Source of the DNA: Heteronotia binoei
Taxonomy: Eukaryota
Reading direction: 5' to 3'
Length of the DNA: 64,000 bases
NCBI RefSeq assembly: GCF_032191835.1
Contig: NC_083232.1
Coordinates: 75,144,001 to 75,208,000, forward strand
The notes under the pieces are model-generated. The model was not told the origin of the DNA, made no database searches, and worked only from the letters and a program-made list of their open reading frames with translations. Below, piece after piece: positions 11,721 to 42,539 of this stretch (the stretch's first letter is position 1; every line of letters starts with the position of its first letter). Position numbers and translations under genes: made by a program.

Positions 11721-11889
11721 AGAACTTCCTGCCCCTCTAGGAGGCTTTCCCCCTAGAGTTGCTGGTTTAACTCCAGAAGGGAGGAGGGAATGAGGGGAAG
11801 GCTAAAGAACTTCCTGCCCCTCTAGGAGGCTTTCCCCCTAGAGCTGATGGTTTAACTCCGGAAGGGAGGGGGGAGTGAAGGGAAGGCTA
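11721..11889. repeat. 85-bp tandem duplication at the L2 ORF end / 3' UTR
   Basis: AGAACTTCCTGCCCCTCTAGGAGGCTTTCCCCCTAGAG occurs at 11721 and 11806. Confidence 0.9.
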
Positions 11890-12014
11890 GGCCACACAGC
11901 CTGCCTAGTAGTTTCATGTTCCCCTCCCACCAAGCACCAACATTAACCAAGATGGCGTTTCTCCACAAAGTGCCAAAAGCCTGTCGGAATAACTCAGTTT
12001 TGCAGGCCCTGTGG

Positions 12015-12850
12015 AATTGAGAGAGGTCCTGCAGGGCCCTTATGGCCTCTGGGAGTGCATTCCATATTTCAGGTGTTGCAACTGAGAAGGCCCTGAATCG
12101 AGTAGAACACAGCCTGGCCTCCCTTGGTCCGAGGATGGACAGTAGATGTTGTGTCCCTGAACTCAGTGCTCTCTGGGAAACATGTGGAGAAAGGCGGTTC
12201 CGAAGATAGATAGGCCCCCGATCATATAGGGTTTTAAAGGTCAATACCAACATCTTGAAACGGACTCGGAACGCAATAGGTAGCCAGTGCAGTTCTTTCA
12301 GCACCGGCTGAATGTGCTCCCATTGAGGGAGCCTCATTAACAGCTGTGCTGCTGCATTCTGCACTAGCTGCAGTTTCTGAGTCAAGGGTAACCCTATGTA
12401 GAGAGCATTCCAGTGATCTATTCTCGAGGTGAAATTGAGAGAGGTCCTGCAGGGCCCTTATGGCCTCTGGGAGTGCATTCCATATTTCAGGTGCTGCCAC
12501 TGAGAAGGCCCTGGATCGTGTAGAACACAGCCTGGCCTCCCTTGGTCCGAGGATGGACAGTAGATGTTGTGTCCCTGAACGCAGTGCTCTCTGGGGAACA
12601 TGTGGAGAAAGGCGGTTCCGAAGATAGATAGGCCCCCGATCATATAGGGTTTTAAAGGTCAATACCAACATCTTGAAACGGACTCGGAACACAATAGGTA
12701 GCCAGTGCAGTTCTTTCAGCACCGGCTGAATGTGCTCCCATTGAGGGTGCCTCATTAACAGCTGTGCTGCTGCATTCTGCACTAGCTGCAGTTTCTGAGT
12801 CAAGGGTAACACCATGTAGAGAGCATTACAGTGATCTATTCTCGAGGTGA
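12015..12850. repeat. 418-bp direct tandem duplication inside the L2
   Basis: Copies 12015-12432 and 12433-12850 both start AATTGAGAGAGGTCC and end TTCTCGAGGTGA; about 11 substitutions by manual comparison. Confidence 0.95.
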
Positions 12851-14348
12851 CCGTGGCATTGATCACCATTGCTAGGTCATCGTGTTCCAGGAAAGGGGCC
12901 AACTGCTGAGTCCGTCGGAGATGGAAAAAGGCGAATTTGGCAGTGGCTGCAACTTGGGCCTCCATTGTCAAAGAGGACTCAAGAAGCACTCCCAAACTCT
13001 TGACCTTAGGGGCCGGTATCAATGGCACCCCATCAAGAGTTGGTAAAGGGATCTTCCTTCCTGGGCCACCCTGACCTAGATAGAGAACCTCCGTCTTGTC
13101 GGATTCAGCTTCAACCAACTCTGCCTGAGCCAAGTGCTTCTGTATTCACTTGTGTACTCACCTCACTCTCCCATCAGATTTTTAAATTCCTTCCAGATTT
13201 TAAATTCTTTTCCCCAAGTGTTCTGCAGTCACTCTACTGTATCTCTGTAGTTTCCGAGGGTGGTTTTTTAGAGGAGTATTTCCCTCTCCTCCTTTTAGTT
13301 GGTTTCAAAGCCTTTAAAAGCATACACATTTCCTCAGACTTTTCCTCCCCCCCCTCCCCTCACAGCCCAGTTGGTGTCTCCTTATTGGTCAGTTTTGTAC
13401 TAGGCATGTCTTTTTGAAATGGGAGTTAAGGAAAGTAATTGCCTTTTGGACTTGTTTGCAGAAATAGCCCACTAGCTTGGTTGATTAAGACACAGTGCTA
13501 TTAACATGAAGGTTGTTGGTTTGATTCCCCATTTTGTTTTTTGTCTTTTTTGGGGAAAAATGTTTTCTTTTAAATTGACTGTGAAGACAAACATTTCAAA
13601 TGCCAGGATAATGCTGTGGAACCTGCTCTAGAACAGCAGCAGCCTGTTTAAAAAAAGTCTGGTCCATCGTAACATCTGGTCTTCCCCTTTTTGTAATCTC
13701 ATTTCCAAATAACAATTGTGTGTGTGGGGGGGATGCAGACGTCCCCACTCCCTCTCTGGCCAAGTGGTTGGCATCTCCTCTCACTAAGCTTTTAAATCAG
13801 TTTAGTGCCATTTTTTCCCCCTTCAATAATCCTGGATTATCATTAAACTTCTTGACTATTGATGGGGGTGGTGGTGGGAGAAGAACACTAATGGCAACCC
13901 CACAGTAAATTCAGCTGGAAGAATCTCCTATTTCAAAAGATACTAACCAATCAGGAGAGACCAATCCCATAACGCTACCTGGGTTTTCTCACTGGTATGT
14001 AGAATATATACTCTGCAATTCCCAATAGAAATTGGAGAGGGGAAAAAAAGATGCAGAGTGCAGGCACAGCATTTGAAGTAAACCCCAACCAACTTGACTT
14101 CAATGAAAATCAGAAGTAACTGTATGCAGAAAGGCCCAAAGTCCAGTTTATGGAGTGTAATCATGCAGAAATCCTGCATTTATTTATTTGAAATGTTTTT
14201 ACTTCACCTGTCTCCTTCAAAGAAGGAAAGACCCAAGGTGACTTGATGCTAAATTAAAACCCCCACAAAGTTATCTTTTAAACCATTTATCATCAAAACA
14301 TTGACCTCATACTAATATACCTGCCACATCCCAAACTCTTAAGCCTTA

Positions 14349-33930: not shown

Positions 33931-34670
33931 CCACAAGAAAAAAATGAGGGGAATACAAAGTCTTGTCATCCCCCCCCTACTCCTTGTTGCATGGCTTTCA
34001 ACCCCAATTTAGAAATACAAAGGAAAATCACAGCATTTGAGCTAGAGGCCACAACAAAAACATAGAATTTTTGCTGGGAATTCTGTGCCGGTTCTTCGTG
34101 CCTATACAAACCATTGTGGTTTGAGTACAGCCGCCTGTCTATACTGAGAAACACAGACAGACAAGGAGTCAGGATAAATTGTCTTAATAAACTCTTCTTT
34201 TATTTGAAGAAACAACTATAATAAGCTTGTGAGTTGTGAGTGCTGTAGCAGACAGGTCAATAATCTACTTCCTAATTCACTCAGAATTATATTAGATCAC
34301 TCAAAAGAAAGCAGCTTATTATAGTTAATCTTCAACATTCATCTTTAATCTCTCTCTTTCATTAAAATCAGATGCTGGCCAAGCTCCTGGGTATATAGTG
34401 ATACGCTGTCTCCATCTTGCATAAGAAAACAGCATATTTTTAGATTTACGTTGGATAAATCTAAATCCCCATACTCTCCAGTGAGGAGTACAAGGGATAC
34501 AGAGAGCTCAGTCAGGTCGAATAGAGTCACTTACCAGAATATGATGGGCCAGTTTCCTACTTGTTTTATACTGCATTCAGTGATTTTTATGTAAAACAGA
34601 ATCAGGCTTATCTGTGATGCAGAATGACCTGTACTGGGCGCTTCCTGATGTATTTTTATCCATATGAAAG

Positions 34671-34986
34671 AGTAGTAGCTAGGGGGCCCCTATCATCATC
34701 AAAGTGACAGTTGCCCCGCCCACACATGCATGCCCCACCCACACAAAAACAAGTGTCGTATGTTTCCTTATGGGGGAGTGATGCAACAGTCCCCGAGGGA
34801 GCGGCTAGGGATCCCCCCCCCCAAGGAATGCCAGATGTTTCCTAAGGGGGAAAGGAGGGTTAGCCACTGGTGCAACAGGCTTCATATTGTTTGAGAAAAA
34901 GCACGTTTTGCAACACAGACGTTATTTAGAGAATTGTGGAGATGCAACAGTTCTAAGCGGCCATAGTTTGGAGAGAAGACATACCC
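34671..34986 (+). repeat. Left terminal inverted repeat of the Polinton-like element
   Basis: About 95% identical (roughly 15-16 differences by manual alignment) to the reverse complement of 41510-41827. Confidence 0.95.
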
Positions 34987-36646
34987 ATTTTGTACAGATG
35001 AAACAGCATGCCCTCCCACGACACTCTTCAAACAGGTGCGTAACATCCTTGTAAGAACTGCATTTTGTACACCATGCCCTGGAGGGACATGCTGTTTCGT
35101 CTTGGGCCGCCAGCTCACCATGCCTCTTAAAACAAAAGTCGCTACTACAATATAAGCAGCAGTTGGGACATTTCTTAGGCGTCCCTAGGATCGTTTTACA
35201 TTCTGCGGTGGAACACATTCTACAAAATTGAGTACACTTATGGTAATGGTTTTATAGGGTGTAACAATACCTGCAATAATTCCTAGACCCAAAAAATATC
35301 TTAATGTGAAGAATGCCATAAAAATGAACACTATGTAAAAGCATAAAATGCGTCTCAGGATATTTTGGGGGCTGTGTTTTAAATATACTCCATCCCTTAT
35401 CAGAACACAACACAACATGAATGTTCACTTTTAAATGTTCCTCAACTGTTGATATGTCACAGAGACCCACCTTTTTCTGATCAGACCATCCTAATTCACT
35501 GTGTAATTTTCTAGCTGCCTCTAACAGGATTGCGTCAGAAGGATCCCCCGCTCTTTTCATTACATCCATAAGCCCCACCGCAAAGCATAGGTTGTTGTAG
35601 TAATCAAAAATGCCATTTTTTTCAATTATTGAACTGTAAGGGATAGACAAGCACCACCCCTTGGGGGCTTTGAAACAGTCACAATTAAGCGCAGTGTGTC
35701 GGTGCTGAGTTTTTCTCTATTGCTTTGCAGCATATTTACCACAAACTCCAGAAACTCATCCGCATTGAGATGGTCTTTCTTTTTCTTAAATGAAAATAAT
35801 GGATTTTGTAGACCTTCCCCCTGTAGGCGCATTTGAACAAAATCTCCCTCATCTATGCCACCATTAATCTCATCCAGAACATCCTGGATCCCCCTCGTTA
35901 GCACTTCCAAGGCATGTGCAAAGGAGCGCACGTGTTCTAAATTTACAAAGCGAAATTCCTCGCTGGTTACCAAAGTCCTAAATCTTTCATAGGGCATCTG
36001 CCACCCCCTCACACATTCCACATAGACTTCAGGAGGTTGTGGAGAGGCATTTGGACCCCCCAGCACAGCCTTTACCACCTCCACACCATCAGGGCTGTCG
36101 GAGACTTTAGGAGGTGATGGAGAGGTTGCACATCTCTCTGCTGTGCCCTCCCCAATCCCATTGGTGCTAGCAGAACGTGCTTCCCCATCCTCCTCTCCCC
36201 CCACCTCATCAGCTTGAACAGACATCAGGTCTGGGGAGTCCCTTACACCTTCAGAGACATTGTTGGGCAGAGCCCCCCCATACTGAATAGCGCTATCAAT
36301 ACACGCTGAGTACTTTGCATTATTTTTAATCAATTCGCTCTCATAGTTGTCAAACAGCTTGGAGATCTTGTTGCAAACATCACGAGCCTCCATGGCTTTC
36401 TTAATAAGATTATCTTTCTCTTTCAATTGTTGAGTGAGTTTGAAAAGAGATTCAGTTAATTCCATCCGTTTTTTAGGTTGATCGCTATCGCTTATTACGC
36501 CCCCCCCCCTTCGTTGGTTCTTGCACTGTCAGTTTTTCTCTTTTTAGGCTTAGGCCCCTTCTGGCTGTTGGTAGACACAGAACGTTTCTTTTGAGGTGTA
36601 CCATCACCCTGCAACGGCATTGCAGCTTGTGATGTTCCAGCTACAG
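34922..36646 (-). pseudogene. Disrupted N-terminal part of Polinton protein-primed DNA polymerase B polyprotein (basic/coiled-coil leader, terminal-protein-like region, vOTU-like domain, Cys-rich region); exonuclease and polymerase core missing
   Basis: ORFs 36495-36689, 35626-36465, 35252-35650 and 34922-35218 join via a poly-G frameshift (36500-36509), a frameshift at ~35650 after PRGG, and one in-frame TAA (35252-35254). Motifs MLQSN, PPRGG, NNLCFAVGL, HFYGI, CRYC, HKCTQFCRMC and CSSDFCFKRH match my recollection of vertebrate Maverick/adintovirus PolB N-termini. Confidence 0.82.
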
Positions 36647-36826
36647 CTTCAAGAAAATAAACATACATAGATGTAGACCAAAAAAACACGCTGTGATCAT
36701 GTAAAACTGCGCAATTGTATTGGACAAAAGTACATTAAACTTGTACAGAAAGTTTTAAAAGATGATTATGATGTTTAAAACAAAATTATTTTTGTTAAAT
36801 ATGACTCCACAAAAAACCCTACAAAA

Positions 36827-36828
36827 AT

Positions 36829-36867
<39 letters not shown>

Positions 36868-37115
36868 TTCCGTAACTTATACCCCGCCCTTCCCACAGAG
36901 TGGCTTAGGGCGGCTCACAGCAAACGATAAAACAATAAAACAGGAGCAAAGTTATTACAATTAAAAAATAAGCATTTAAAGACCTAAAAACCTTAAAATT
37001 TCAACATTAAAACTATACTGTATAAATCACAAAAATCTAGTAAGTTACATTTATCCAGTCAGGCGTAGGCTAACCGGAAGAGGGTTGTCTTACAGGCCCT
37101 GCGGAACTGAGTAAG
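36827..37115 (-). mobile_element. L2 3' fragment nested in the Polinton-like element, with (TAAA)n tail
   Basis: Minus strand reads LTQFRRACKTTLFRLAYA*, then a short UTR ending GGGCGGGGTATAAG and (TAAA)n at ~36827-36870. Confidence 0.85.
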
Positions 37116-37154
37116 AATTGTAACCAATTGATAATACATACAGGATATACATAA

Positions 37155-37370
37155 GGGGAGGGATGGTAGCTCAGTGGTAGAGCATCTGCTTGGTAAGCAG
37201 AAGGTCCCAAGTTGAATCCCTAGCATCTCCAACTAAAAAGGGTCCAGACAGGTAGGTGTGAAAAACCTCAGCTTCAGACCCTGGAGAGCCACTGCCAGTC
37301 TGAGTAGACAATACTGACTTTGATGGACCAAGGGTCTGATTCAGTATAAGGCAGCTTCATATGTTCATAT
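37155..37370 (+). mobile_element. tRNA-derived SINE with CR1-like tail, nested in the Polinton-like element
   Basis: GGTAGCTCAGTGGTAGAGCATCTGC...GTCCCAAGTTGAATCCC (box A/B), ending CAGCTTCATATGTTCATAT. Confidence 0.85.
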
Positions 37371-37769
37371 ATGTATGTTGGTTTATGGTAACTAATGCTG
37401 GGATAATTTTGCCAAGCAGTGGAAAAAGTTGGAAGCCTCAACTCTAGAAAATACCTGAAACGGCTGAAATAGACATCACGACAGTGGTTCTAAATGTTGA
37501 ACCTATGCAGGAAGTGTTGGAGAGTTGGGCTCCTTTCTATGAATGGCCCTTTTTCACAGAGTATTAAGGTGTATCAAAATGTTATTCAAAACCCCCCTAA
37601 AATCTGTTGATAAAACCTTCTACAAGTCTCGTGCCAGCATTACAATGTTGTAAAAACTAAGCATCTTTAAGTGTCAAAATCTCTTATACACAAATATTTA
37701 CTGCAACATTCAAATTTTATTAATCCCCTAAAAAAACCTATACAGATCTCATTAGTTTCATATAAAATA

Positions 37770-37862
37770 AGAATATAAGAGAAGCCATGTTGGATATACA
37801 CATATATATACACACTGTGGCTAATAGCCACTGATGGACCTCTGCTCCATATTTTTATGCAA
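37770..37862 (-). mobile_element. Short CR1 3'-end fragment
   Basis: AGAGAAGCCATGTTGGAT...CACACTGTGGCTAATAGCC...CTCTGCTCCATATTTTTAT matches the 3' end of the CR1 at 40423-40565. Confidence 0.8.
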
Positions 37863-37926
37863 AAATGCAAAAGCTGCCACATTTGTGCAGTATTGATTTT
37901 GAATCCCATATGCTGTTAAAAGTGAC

Positions 37927-37943
37927 TCTCTCTCTCTCTCTGA

Positions 37944-37981
<38 letters not shown>

Positions 37982-37982
37982 G
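37927..37982 (+). repeat. (TC)n(AC)n microsatellite
   Basis: Directly visible. Confidence 0.95.
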
Positions 37983-37990
37983 AGTGAGAT

Positions 37991-38457
37991 CTGTTTGGCA
38001 AACAAGGCATTTCCAAAAAACCAACCATTAAAATAACATAGAGCTGATTAATTAATATTCTTACCAGGCTCCTTAAACACAGTGGCTGCCTGGGGGTGCA
38101 TTTGTGCTGCTAGATCTTCCTCATCTGAAATAACCTCTGTCAAAAAACCAGATCAAATTAATTCAGAAAACTTTACATTTACATCTTTACAGCTTGTTTG
38201 TGTCATAAAAAAAGAACTTGTAAAATTTTATTTACCTATGTCATTAATAGTGTATTGATACAATTCAATCATGCTGCTAATAGCTACTGATTCTAACTCC
38301 TGCGATTCCATACACAAATCATCATTGAGGTAATCTGAAACCAGAATTAAGGTACTTGTTAAATGTCTATTTGCTGGTAGTTCTACATCCACACAACCCC
38401 CCCTCCTCATACCAAAATTTCTTATCTTGATAATCATTGAGCTGTGTTGCCATGATG
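37991..38457 (-). pseudogene. Putative spliced gene segment inside the Polinton-like element: exons 38457-38413 (45 nt), 38334-38236 (99 nt), 38136-38065 (72 nt); introns of 78, 99 and 74 nt
   Basis: Canonical sites: acceptors CTTTCAG, GGTTTCAG, TTTTGACAG and CCAAACAG; donors G|GTATGA, AG|GTAAAT and TG|GTAAGA. Exon lengths are multiples of 3 and stay open in phase 1 (...DYLNDDLCMESQELESVAISSMIELYQYTINDI-EVISDEEDLAAQMHPQAATVFKEP...). Product unidentified. Confidence 0.6.
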
Positions 38458-38489
38458 CTGAAAGTTGTATGTTTACAGCTGATCTTAAA

Positions 38490-40290
38490 AGTTTTTGTTG
38501 CATTAAAGATGATCCTTCACATATCCTTAATATAGTTATTTGGGGATGGGAGGGGGAGTCAGAAAATATATGGCAACTTGACTCTGAAAATATATCGTGT
38601 GAGAACCTAATTTCCTGAGTTCTCTCTCTGTTTATCTTGACTGGTCTAAGCACTTGATCTTTTAGGACAGTTTGAGGGGTCAAATACTTTTGTCTCACAA
38701 TTAGCAATATATAAGATTGATCAGATTAGAAGGCTGAGAGAGAGATATTTCTACAGTTCTCACCATAAAATCACTGCCTTTTTAGGACAGTTGACCTTTT
38801 AGGATAGTTTCCCAGACACGGTTCTGTGAGAAATCTTGTTTTGACAGCCAGAGCTAGATTCCCCAGCCTGGAGACTGGCAAGCTCCCTGTGTGGTCGCAG
38901 AGAACAGAGGGAGTTTTCATGATCGTCTGAGAACAGGTTGATGAGGCAGTCTTTATCCCCAACAATGAAGACAGGGGTTGGGTTTTAAGCTATATAGCTG
39001 TGACCAGACACAGTGATTATTTTTCATTTCAAGGGGGGAGAAGCCAGCATTAATACAAAATTAAAAATTGAAGCTGTAATACCATTTATGATATGCAGAT
39101 AGTCACAATAATTTGCAATGTTATAAGCAAATATTACTAAGGTGGTGTTGTGAATGCCTAACTGCTTAATAAGTACTATACATTGTGTAAAAAATAAAAT
39201 TTCTTTTTTGAGTGATTCATATTGTGGCAAGCACTCTCAGACCACAGAACTAATTTTTTTTTTAAAATGTCCATTGCTTTGAAGTGTGAGGGAAACTAAT
39301 TACTTTAAAACATATAACTAACAGACACAGGCAATACAAACTGGGGCTGCCAACAGCGCTTATAAAAACTTTCCCTCCTCATTTTCTCCTCATAACAACC
39401 CTGAAAGGTTAGGCTGAAAGAGAGAGTGATTAGGCCCAGGTTACGCCCTGAGTCCGTTTGTGAAGAGGGTGGGATATAAAGCCAGAGTAAGTTAATAAAT
39501 AAAAAACAAAATTACCACCTAGCGGGGTTTCTTAGCAGAGTGGGGGTTTCAAATTTGGGTCTCCCAGATTCCAGTCTAACACTTTACCGCTATGACACGC
39601 TGACTCTAGAAATTCTGCCAGCGGATTTCTCTGAGCTGGATATATTTGGAGATCCTTAATAAGAATTATACGGCTTTCCTGTTTAGGGCAATGTACAGAA
39701 ATCTTTTTGTAATTTGCCAAGATTCTTTTGGTTGCATTGTTGAGCCTGATCCTAGTTTTGGCTTCTGTTTATATCTGTTTGGGTGGGGGACTCAGAAAAT
39801 ATGTGGCAACTTGACTCTGAAAATATATCGCGTGAGAACCTAATTTCCTCAGTTCTCTCTCTGTTTATCTTGACCGGTCTAAGCACTTGACCTTTTAGGA
39901 CAGTTTGAGGGGTCAAATACTTTTGTCTCACAATTAGCAATATATAAGTTCGATCAGATTAGAAGGCTGAGATATATATTTCTACAGTTCTCACCATAAA
40001 AATAACTGGCCTTGAGCAGTTGACCTTTTAGGACAGTTTGTGGGGTTAAATACTTTTGTCTCACAATTAGCAATATATAAGATCGATCGACTTAGAAGGT
40101 GGGAAACGATACCTTGGAATTCACTTTCCCCAGACACGGTTCTGTGAGAACTCATTTGCAAGGTTTTGTGTTTTGTTTTGACAACCAGAGCTAAATTCTC
40201 CAGCCTAGAGACTGGTAACCTCCCTGTGCTTGCAGAGGACGAGAGACAGTTTTCATGATCGTCTGAGAACAGATTGATGAAGCTGCTAGA
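38490..40290. repeat. Dispersed direct duplication within the element (~38490-38950 vs ~39720-40290), with an extra partial internal repeat at ~40015-40100
   Basis: Shared blocks such as GGCAACTTGACTCTGAAAATATATCG.GTGAGAACCTAATTTCC, CAAATACTTTTGTCTCACAATTAGCAATATATAAG (three copies) and TTTTCATGATCGTCTGAGAACAG. Confidence 0.9.
39350..39600 (-). mobile_element. Old MIR/Squam3-like SINE nested in the Polinton-like element
   Basis: CCTCATAACAACCCTG..AGGTTAGGCTGA...GGCCCAGGTTAC and CCCAGATTCCAGTCTAACACTTTA are reverse MIR-like core and head. Confidence 0.6.
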
Positions 40291-40422
40291 AAGATAGGTT
40301 TTAATGTTAATAAGAAACTGTAGGTGTTTGCAATTAATAATTAACAGGGCAGTGTTATTAGAATGGGTTGCAGAACTAGCCATGAATGTCTTTGCAACAG
40401 TTTCCCCCGTAAAACACACTGA

Positions 40423-41407
40423 GAACATAAGAGCATAAGAGAAGCCATGTTGGATCAGGCCTATGGCCCATCCAATCCAACACTCTGTGTCACACAGTGC
40501 CCAATATAGGTGTGTGTATGTACACACACCCACACTGTGGCTAATAGCCTCTGCTCCATATTTTTATCCAATCCCCTCCTAAAGCAGGCTATGCTTGTAG
40601 CTGCCACCACCTCCTGCAGCGGTGAATTCCACATGTTAATCACCCTTTGGGTGAAGAAGTACTTCCTTTTATTTGTTTTAACCTGACTGATCAGCAATTT
40701 CATTGAATGCCCACGAGTTCTTGTATTGTGAGAAAGGGAGAAAAGTACCTCTTTCTCTGTTTTCTCCACCCCATGCATAATCTTGTAAACTTCAATCGTG
40801 TCACCTCGCAGTCGACGTTTCTCCGAGCTAAAGAGCCCCAAGTGTTTTAACCTTTCTTCATAGGGAAAGTGTTCCAAACCTTTAATCATTCTAGTTGCCC
40901 TTTTCTACACTTTTTTCCAATGCTATAATACCCCTTTTTGAGGTGCGGTGACCAGAACTGTACACAGTATTCCAAATGAGTCCGCACCATCGATTTGTAC
41001 AGGGGGGGCATTATGATACCGGCTGCTTTGTTTTCAATCCCCTTCCTAATAATTCCCAGCGTGGCGATGGCCTTTTTTATCACAATTGCACACTGTCTTG
41101 ACATTTTTTTAGTGAGTTTTCTACCCCCCCCCCCAAGATCTCGCTCTCTCTTGGTCAGTCTCTACCGGTTCACACCCCCATCAACTTGTATTTGTAGCAG
41201 GGATTCTTGGCCCCGATGTGCATTATTTTGCACTTGGCCACGTTGAACCTTATCTGCCACGTTGTCGCCCCACTCACCCAGCCTTTGGAGTGCCTCGCAA
41301 TCCTCTCTGGTTTTCACCACCCTGAACAATTTAGTGTCATCTGCAAACTTGGCCACTTTGCTGCTTACTCCCGACTCAGGTTCATTAATGAACAAGTTAA
41401 AGAGCAC
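40423..41407 (-). mobile_element. 5'-truncated CR1 LINE (RT C-terminus plus 3' UTR) nested in the Polinton-like element
   Basis: Frames read LFNLFIN...KFADDTKLF, LYKSMVRTHLEYCVQFWSP and RRLRGD.IEVYKI...TRGHSMKL; tail (TCTTATG)n-like at 40423-40440; frameshifted. Confidence 0.92.
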
Positions 41408-41509
41408 GAGTTGTATCGACACGCAATCTGATGCAACGTGATGTTAAAGGGACGTGTTACACCTATAAGATTAGCTGTGTTCAGTTTTAAAGCCATCATT
41501 TTATCTGTT

Positions 41510-41827
41510 GGGTATGTCTCCTCTCCAAACTATGGCTGCTTAGAACTGTTGCATCTCCACAATTCTCTAAATAACGTCTGTGTTGCAAAACATGCTTTTC
41601 CTCAAACAATATGAAGCCTGCTGCACCAGTAGCTGACCCTCCTTCCCCCCTTAGGAAACATCTGGCATTCCTTGGGGGGGGGTGGATCCCTAGCCGCCCC
41701 CTCGGGGACTGTTGCATCACTCCCTCATAAGGAAACATATGACGCTCGTTTTTGTGTGGGTGGGGCATGCATGTGTGGGCAGGGCAACTGTCACTTTGAT
41801 GATGATAGGGGCCCCCTAGCTACTACT
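41510..41827 (-). repeat. Right terminal inverted repeat of the Polinton-like element
   Basis: Ends ...GCCCCCTAGCTACTACT immediately followed by TSD TGAAAG. Confidence 0.95.
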
Positions 41828-42539
41828 TGAAAGGTAATCAGATTAAATCTGGTGCATGGGATATGCGTGCAAAGAGGATGTACTATGATAATGCCACACT
41901 GGCCTCCATAAAATTGCCTCTGTTTAGGGTTGCCAGCACTGCCTTGGCAACTGCTGAGAATTTTTTGAAGACAATGCTTGAAGAGGGTGGAATTTGGGGA
42001 GGATGTGACATCATTTCCAGATGGATTTCTCTTAATCTTTCTGGTAAAGGCCAAAAAGAAATGGGAAATGGGAAAATTCCTAGAATATCACTAGGGAGGC
42101 TATTTTCCAGACATTTCTCTCTTGCTTCAATTTCTTATGGTTGGTAGGGAGGGCTGGGGCCATGGGTAGGGGTTTATGCATTGCAGGTAGGCAGATGGCC
42201 AACCTCTGGCTGAGTTCCTGCCAATTTGATTTAACTTTAGGTAAACTTACTCAGACACGTTCCACTGAGTTCGGTGGACTTTATACTATGGTTTATTTAT
42301 TTATTGCACTTGTATCCCGCTCTCCCCAAATGGGCTCAGGGCGGCTAACTACAGTCACAATTCGATGACAGATTCACATTATAACAATAAAACATTATTA
42401 AAACATTAAAATATTAAAAATGTTTAAATACAGTTCAGATGGCGTTCTGTCCACGGAAAAGGCTCTTGCCCTTGTAGTGGTCAAACAGGCATCCTTTAGA
42501 CCAGGGATGTTTAACAGATTTATCGAGCTTATTGCACAG

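Follow-up and report, generated by a model that had tools for sequence, protein, structure and literature searches.

Non-autonomous Polintons, reportedly described by Kapitonov and Jurka in 2006 and represented by the N families of Repbase, are said to be helper-dependent, gene-less elements that are shorter and have Polinton ends. Vertebrate Mavericks (Polintons) were surveyed by Barreat and Katzourakis (2021, PMC8097293), who located the elements via their core genes. [quoted passage not shown] Its main text makes no mention of geckos, lizards or non-autonomous elements. In work on nematode Mavericks (Widen et al., 10.1101/2022.07.12.499685; PMC10680173), host-derived genes are carried as cargo by autonomous elements and sometimes keep their introns. 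A search of the openly accessible literature retrieved neither a Maverick satellite with Bcl-2 nor a palindromic one, and the sole Bcl-2 passage found for Mavericks, Polintons and Bcl-2 concerns an LTR element.

We analysed a Maverick in a 64,000-nt stretch (the window) of contig NC_083232.1 of Heteronotia binoei. It is probable that this locus is the isolated relic of an old autonomous element, its loss of sequence likely post-dating insertion, and that its TIR also served a palindromic, core-gene-less family bearing BCL2L10 (the satellite), likely replicated and integrated by helpers.

Ends and content of the window element

The end features of Mavericks/Polintons, i.e. an (AGT)2 or (AG)3 end motif, TIRs and a 6-bp target site duplication (TSD), are all present (Table 1); the (AGT)2 motif and TSD length are shared with vertebrate Mavericks, as given in PMC8097293. 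The tips are AGTAGTAG at 34671 and CTACTACT at 41827, and the hexamer TGAAAG was read on both sides, as the original prediction had stated (the chance of a 6-bp match is ~2.4e-4). Between the halves of the inverted repeat (34671-34987/41509-41827) there are 14 substitutions and one 2-bp indel. The family TIR is ~420 bp long (423-424 bp in two long copies), so the left TIR (317 bp) is without its inner ~100 bp and the element cannot be called complete-ended. An early reading of the family TIR as >1.4 kb was discarded, as autonomous copies show ~420 bp.

Table 1. Features of the window element and its flanks (positions in the window)
Feature	Position	Strand	Remarks
Left TSD, TGAAAG	34665..34670		identical hexamer at 41828-41833
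Left TIR, truncated, 317 of ~420 bp; (AGT)2 end motif	34671..34987	+	end motif as in PMC8097293
Deletion junction with templated filler	34988..35009		unique in genome; ~9.5 kb of family sequence gone here
PolB 5' part, protein-primed, three broken frames, without polymerase core	35007..36731	-	tblastn, 75-85% identity
Private LINE-like insertion ("L2", label of the original prediction)	36829..37113		borders in 0/5 long copies; flanks contiguous in reference copy
tRNA-derived SINE, inherited from subfamily source element	37152..37370	+	tRNA head 37159-37231; both borders in 4/5 long copies
Private 94-bp CR1-like 3'-end insertion	37768..37862		borders in 0/5 long copies
Right arm, non-coding, internal duplications	38252..40426		sequence comparison
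CR1-like LINE 3' fragment, fixed in family arm	40427..41410	-	both borders in 4/5 long copies
Right TIR, complete, ~420 bp	41408..41827	-	copy comparison
Right TSD, TGAAAG	41828..41833		matches left hexamer

A full-size relative supplied nine natural ORFs as tblastn queries. Of these only PolB was found in the window element, and only in part (residues 2-559 of a 1425-aa frame that matches PF03175 in Pfam); integrase, capsid, protease and ATPase gave no match, in agreement with the earlier statement that no core-gene ORF is visible. None of nine window ORFs gave a Pfam match above the cut-off. Among the core genes of the relatives, rve and PolB exceed the Pfam cut-offs, a DJR-like product was recognised with the atlas, and the protease and ATPase matches are weak and below cut-off. 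The two-module gene order of the long gecko copies is that of vertebrate Mavericks, as presented in PMC8097293. The window element is 90-94% identical in DNA sequence to the long copies; this and the PolB match show its descent from a PolB-bearing element.

The nested L2, SINE and CR1 sequences had been counted as insertions of 1.8-1.9 kb, leaving an element of ~5.3 kb. Their borders were compared with those of five long same-tip copies: the SINE (missing in some other copies) and the large CR1-like piece are inherited, and only ~0.38 kb is private, so that the inherited length is revised to ~6.8 kb. The CR1 label of the large piece is based on the resemblance of its translation and on the original prediction; Pfam gave no match.

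Origin of the deletion

The junction filler consists of a direct copy of 35061-35071 followed by an inverted copy of 35089-35103, both templates lying within 100 bp of the junction, with microhomologies of 2-4 bp. A 23-mer from the junction has one exact match in the 2.63-Gb genome, at its own locus (two matches with two mismatches lie outside Mavericks). Another 39 loci were scored, and the junction is spanned in none. The element had been proposed as a candidate member of a non-autonomous family, to be recognised by the same PolB/TIR junction at loci with different TSDs; no such locus was found. The terminal 30-mer does have 302 genome matches, and there are many short two-ended copies, as would suit a homogeneous family with the structure of the window element. 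The junctions of these short copies differ, and among 82 of them 11 contain satellite sequence and 49 are arm-only. Such a family is extremely improbable, and the unique junction refutes it for this assembly. Of the two earlier options, deletion of a full element is thus a better fit than integration of a helper-dependent family member; the non-autonomous idea fails for the window locus and holds for the satellite, a family of different anatomy whose older wave used the same TIR and whose younger wave is abundant.

Short copies with two right arms were also considered as copy-back defective genomes. Erosion of satellites accounts for them better, because the satellite is two-armed by design and, in 7 old copies, differences between the inner arms (148/3,308) are close to those between the TIRs (152/2,907).

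It is likely that the window element is an autonomous-lineage copy that lost ~9.5 kb after insertion, since old copies are eroded and no such deletion occurs in 39 young elements (38 of helper or satellite types and one fold-back). A full element would have integrated with formation of the 6-bp TSD; a later break would have been closed by end joining, in the course of which the template was briefly switched twice, and the left TIR would thereby have become fused to the 5' region of PolB. Old termini indicate that post-insertion rearrangement is common: of the 59, 30 lack any partner within 20 kb, 2 are partnered but without TSD agreement, 4 make up two inverted pairs, and 23 possess both partner and TSD. 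In three elements one end is inverted together with its flank. At least 9 kb of the gene block is retained in only 5 of 21 autonomous-lineage stretches, each junction being seen just once.

Alternatively, the deletion could have preceded integration, with PolB template switching producing a defective-interfering genome that was inserted once by helper integrase. The element has kept its two tips and its TSD, and where the source of the filler in the window carries a private change the filler keeps the family base (12 matches versus 2, both of the 2 being the window locus). The filler is older than this substitution; the deletion is therefore an old event that may have preceded insertion. A young 6.4-kb fold-back, composed of two left arms (99.9% identical) and accompanied by a TSD, demonstrates that defective forms can exist from the start, and the satellite shows that core-less DNA with such tips gets integrated. 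We nevertheless judge this order of events unlikely: simple internal deletion is found in 0/39 young elements, half of the old termini (30/59) are one-ended and three elements have inverted ends, and the element, at 6.8 kb, is much shorter than the mobile forms (15.2-17.5 kb). The latter range holds 36 of the 38 young helper and satellite elements (paired or end-resolved); one other measures 24.4 kb, and for one only a single tip was found.

Gap repair following excision of Ac/Ds and P elements leaves the ends together with filler DNA. Excision by helper integrase and incomplete repair from the sister chromatid would likewise retain both ends, the TSD and templated filler, and old copies contain stubs of 13-335 bp. 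Such an origin is highly improbable, as it leaves losses crossing a terminus unexplained and the 39 young elements, whose helpers are recent, include no such products. Retrotransposition through the CR1 tail was rejected in view of the exact ends and 6-bp TSDs.

A palindromic core-gene-less family

The second family, located outside the window in the same genome, consists of elements of 15.2-15.6 kb with inverted arms of 5.4-5.6 kb and distinct 6-bp TSDs. It is built from one arm that has been mirrored, so that inverted arms of 5.5 kb, which include LINE pieces as padding, surround a 4.2-kb centre. The centre contains an accessory gene of Mavericks and host BCL2L10 in intronless form. The CR1-like piece of the window element (40427-41410) recurs in the old wave of satellites, as part of their long arms. 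Searches for INT, MCP, PRO, ATPase and PolB were negative in 8/8 young satellites, and core genes are absent from 7/7 old satellite regions; for the remaining copies their absence is deduced from size. All 8 fully examined satellites have distinct perfect TSDs; arm identity is 99.3-99.98% in seven of them and 95-98% in one. The cores are 97.5-98.4% identical to one copy. The accessory ORF gave nothing useful against Pfam and the atlas, and its test for selection was not significant (p = 0.23).

Tips define 32 satellite copies. Of 30 tip pairs that flank a Bcl-2 match, 28 lie 15,222-15,638 bp apart; helper Mavericks span 16.3-17.5 kb. In three of the four tip types the satellite tips (terminal 30-mers) are common to co-resident full-size Mavericks: (i) type A, the window TIR, was used by the older satellite wave, (ii) type B occurs in 2 helpers and 8 satellites, and (iii) type C in 4 helpers and 20 satellites. 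Type D has no helper among its 4 pairs. It is likely, as judged from these sequences, that helper Mavericks replicate and integrate the satellite. Helper PolB and integrase would act in trans on its tips, its near-helper length may be due to encapsidation by the helper, and survival of the producing or receiving germ cell might be secured by the Bcl-2 protein. We infer from tips, TSDs and length that helper proteins mobilise or package it.

With non-autonomous Polintons the satellite shares Polinton ends and a presumed helper-dependent mode; it differs from them in its near-helper size, helper-matching tip variants and selected cargo gene. Compared with the Mavericks of PMC8097293, it has arms of 5.4-5.6 kb, no core genes and a host gene, and core-gene-based surveys would overlook it. 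The combination of near-helper length, lack of core genes, helper-matched tips and arms identical up to 99.98% argues directly, at the genomic level, for recent mobilisation in trans; the same features point to packaging and make the satellite a living system in which to hunt for particles.

There is about an even chance that gecko Mavericks have a long-lived satellite virus, i.e. a capsid-sized palindrome which swaps its tips with each new helper, outnumbers the helper ~5:1 and carries its own host-derived anti-apoptotic gene. In this picture the window element would be debris of the old helper lineage. A less probable alternative is that the satellite is copied in the nucleus without particles, its length not being set by a capsid and Bcl-2 being kept for a host or cell benefit unrelated to spread. 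The arms contain fixed LINE and SINE pieces of the host, which indicate passage through integrated copies, and Bcl-2 expression was unseen in raw reads. The lengths of 28/30 pairs, however, fall within 416 bp and near helper size, ~11 kb of the element is mirror-image filler that should be lost in the absence of packaging, and PMC8097293 argues for a size constraint on vertebrate Mavericks.

The captured BCL2L10 gene

The satellite gene is an intronless copy of host BCL2L10/NR13, with 53 young full-length matches. Its 178-aa ORF scores 79 bits against PF00452 (cut-off 31.4) and contains NWGR and GGW motifs and a hydrophobic tail; the product is putatively anti-apoptotic. The two exons of host BCL2L10 are ~10.8 kb apart, whereas the element copy runs uninterrupted over the splice site and still shows homology in the UTRs. 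The Bcl-2 domain, gecko host origin, intron loss and UTR homology were all found. A clade test uniting the element with the same-genome host gene gave p-AU 0.149, which neither rejects nor establishes that grouping. In contrast to the nematode cargo described by Widen et al., this is an intronless retrocopy in a core-less element.

Viral Bcl-2 homologues include adenovirus E1B-19K and the vBcl-2 proteins of herpesviruses and poxviruses. The gecko case is similar in that a DNA virus-like element retains a captured Bcl-2 gene, and differs in that the carrier is a satellite and the donor gene, still 72% identical, resides in the same genome.

The gene is under purifying selection (p = 5e-4): 9 tip-selected young copies contain 9 synonymous and 3 replacement variants (0.065 versus 0.0076 per site), compared with 0.038-0.051 in non-coding core DNA. 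An earlier count (12 synonymous, 3 replacement; 30 loci) was dropped, as the loci had been ranked by protein score. The young-versus-old ratio (0.48) is no different from the 0.47 of old copies in decay, and this branch therefore gives no sign of selection.

In two raw-read RNA runs from unspecified tissues (6% of the reads) the accessory ORF is covered and the Bcl-2 ORF almost readless; in two contig sets the latter has a coverage of no more than 2-5x, and DNA may be the source of this signal. For Gekko, records exist of accessory-gene homologues in multiple copies and of Bcl-2 copies that fall with the element clade; a related satellite form may exist there, with KAL8219097.1 and KAL8177665.1 as candidate loci. 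In the annotation the satellite Bcl-2 copies appear as dozens of "NR13-like" genes of the host, a false gene-family expansion.

Structure of the window element and its deletion junction

Comparison of the two inverted ends of the Maverick remnant in the window over 317 bp shows 14 transitions and one indel. Since the family TIR spans 423-424 bp in two long copies, the left end is truncated inside the TIR; of the original prediction that both TIRs and an exact 6-bp TSD survive, the TGAAAG pair stands and an intact left TIR does not. In an alignment to a natural long copy, the element consists of positions 1-319, a filler, and then 9844 onward. The missing segment (~9.5 kb) contains the integrase, capsids, protease, ATPase and PolB core, all of which had correctly been noted as absent. 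Two small insertions have their borders in none of the five long same-tip copies and are indeed nested, whereas the SINE and a 1-kb CR1 piece, which had also been taken for nested insertions, have both borders present in 4/5.

The best 40 of 752 first-look candidates scored for the TIR in the H. binoei assembly (G000) showed 89-95% identity, and the terminal 30-mer gave 302 matches. In the assembly, the junction 23-mer is matched exactly only at its own locus; two 2-mismatch matches fall outside Mavericks. With a junction-spanning query, the window locus alone among the best 40 of 696 candidates scored spans the junction. It is thus extremely improbable that the element belongs to a non-autonomous family of its own, as had been proposed, and a search of the assembly for a second locus with this junction found none. 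The first part of the filler duplicates 35061-35071 in direct orientation, and the second part duplicates 35089-35103 in inverted orientation. Templated filler of this type resembles polymerase-theta end joining. It retains the family base at a site where its source has since changed, which indicates that the deletion is old.

The window also contains ordinary repeats, namely a LINE reverse transcriptase frame (738 aa, PF00078; 51450-53663, minus strand) and LINE-like frames (11855-13145, minus strand).

Coordinates of the elements described (G000, H. binoei assembly; C, contigs; L, extracted loci)
Feature	Position	Remarks
Window	G000:C10:75144001-75208000	
Window element	34671-41827 of the window	TGAAAG on both sides
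Young full-size Mavericks (n=6)	C6:96.49M, C14:43.85M, C1:178.18M, C9:23.97M, C14:18.44M, C21:179.28M	16.3-17.5 kb
Young fold-back of helper (L168)	G000:C3:70481258-70487702	6.4 kb, perfect TSD
Enlarged satellite	G000:C11:9960218-9984575	24.4 kb; duplicated core, two Bcl-2 copies
Cys/His accessory ORF of satellite	L169:3666-4094 (minus strand)	

Old and young copies

We examined 98 of the 100 terminal 30-mer matches listed (of 302), and the counts of old termini and stretches below are among these. Among these, 23 of 59 anchored old termini had a partner and TSD (≤1 mismatch), two had a partner without matching TSD, four made up two inverted pairs, and for the other 30 no partner lay within 20 kb. 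Of 82 classed old stretches among the matches listed, 21 contained autonomous genes (gene block of at least 9 kb in five), 11 contained satellite sequence, 49 were right-arm only and one left-arm only. The long identical arms of the satellite described below would be fragile after integration, and such fragility is consistent with the many arm-only remnants. Inspection of the 21 autonomous-gene stretches revealed no recurrent deletion junction among them.

In three old elements (L079/L080, L082/L083, L073) one end is inverted together with its flank, and the two TSDs therefore read as reverse complements. In the old copies L123 and L126 the second terminus is reduced to a 13- or 18-bp stub adjoining a perfect TSD. 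L177 and L183, which have a common junction and flank over 1.5 kb, are probably a segmental duplication. Polinton TIRs have been linked with inversions and deletions (PMC11414722).

Three younger tip sequences (21, 47 and 8 matches in G000) defined 39 elements, of which six enclose a PolB match, 32 enclose or adjoin a Bcl-2 match, and one is a fold-back whose two left arms (2,961 bp, 99.9% identical) make it look like a copy-back genome. A single tip was found in one young satellite. Five of the six full-size Mavericks have an open PolB frame of 1425 aa, the full gene set being checked in some copies only; the PMC8097293 survey records only five intact elements in tetrapods.

None of the 39 young elements has a simple internal deletion, unlike the old copies, so erosion increases with age; this points to loss after insertion. 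The window element thus probably lost its ~9.5 kb after insertion, and the locus most likely represents ordinary decay. Deletion before insertion, in which a viral polymerase switch could have left the same filler mark, is rather unlikely given this absence from the young elements, and shortening through gap repair is quite improbable.

A palindromic satellite with a retrocopied Bcl-2 gene under recent purifying selection

A segment common to many short copies (241 candidates) led to the common core of a satellite family, whose anatomy is based on eight young copies read whole. Seven are 15.3-15.6 kb long and one is the enlarged copy; the arms (5.4-5.6 kb) are 99.3-99.98% identical in seven and 95-98% in one, and the TSDs are perfect and all different. 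The only tblastn matches in these eight copies were the Bcl-2 ORF, the Cys/His ORF and part of helper orf2. Thirty tip pairs enclose a Bcl-2 match, and 28 of them span 15,222-15,638 bp. Helpers (full-size Mavericks) and satellites have two tips in common, tip B in 2 helpers and 8 satellites and tip C in 4 and 20; tip D was found in 4 satellites and no helper. Core genes are absent from seven old regions with satellite core or arm, several of which end in the window's TIR, and the C2:70.55M copy is an old satellite with that TIR. Young arms carry CR1-like and L1-like pieces, the latter related (~81%) to a 3′ fragment fixed in one old subfamily (L077, L087, L122). Because SINE, CR1 and L1 pieces were inherited, the source elements went through integrated stages.

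The helper PolB and integrase would replicate and integrate the satellite, whose length suggests that it may be packaged; the Bcl-2 cargo may act in cell survival. Non-autonomous Polintons were reportedly described by Kapitonov and Jurka in 2006. Literature searches, which covered parts of PMC8097293 (whose supplements could list gecko elements), PMC6431247, PMC11414722, PMC10680173 and 10.1101/2022.07.12.499685, turned up no description of this satellite.

The 178-aa cargo ORF matches Pfam Bcl-2, with BCL2-like 10 as its best solved relative. Scoring of all 103 candidates in G000 gave 96 matches, 53 of them full-length (96-100%) and 52 of these without a stop. The host gene lies on C19 and is split into two exons. 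In the element copy the sequence continues uninterrupted over the splice site, and at least ~270 bp of 3′ UTR is shared with the host gene. The element and host proteins are 72% identical, and database proteins identical to the element ORF are labelled NR13-like of H. binoei. A tree of 25 proteins unites the element copies in a single clade (100/100) within geckos (98/89) on a long stem; a Gekko kuhli protein attaches to this clade by a long, unsure branch. The dN/dS against the host is 0.24-0.35, and among nine tip-selected young copies synonymous variants outnumber replacement variants by 9 to 3 (p = 5e-4). Against this stand the young-versus-old ratio (0.48), which is no lower than that of decaying copies (0.47), the lack of significant selection on the Cys/His ORF, and two raw RNA runs that left the Bcl-2 ORF almost without reads while covering the Cys/His ORF.

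The Cys/His ORF has weak homologues (25-36%) near PolB matches in other Mavericks. A 12-member Gekko kuhli cluster is the one relative in the database, and the match of its N-terminus to an upstream satellite ORF suggests that the accessory gene may be spliced. The ORF was covered in all four RNA runs.
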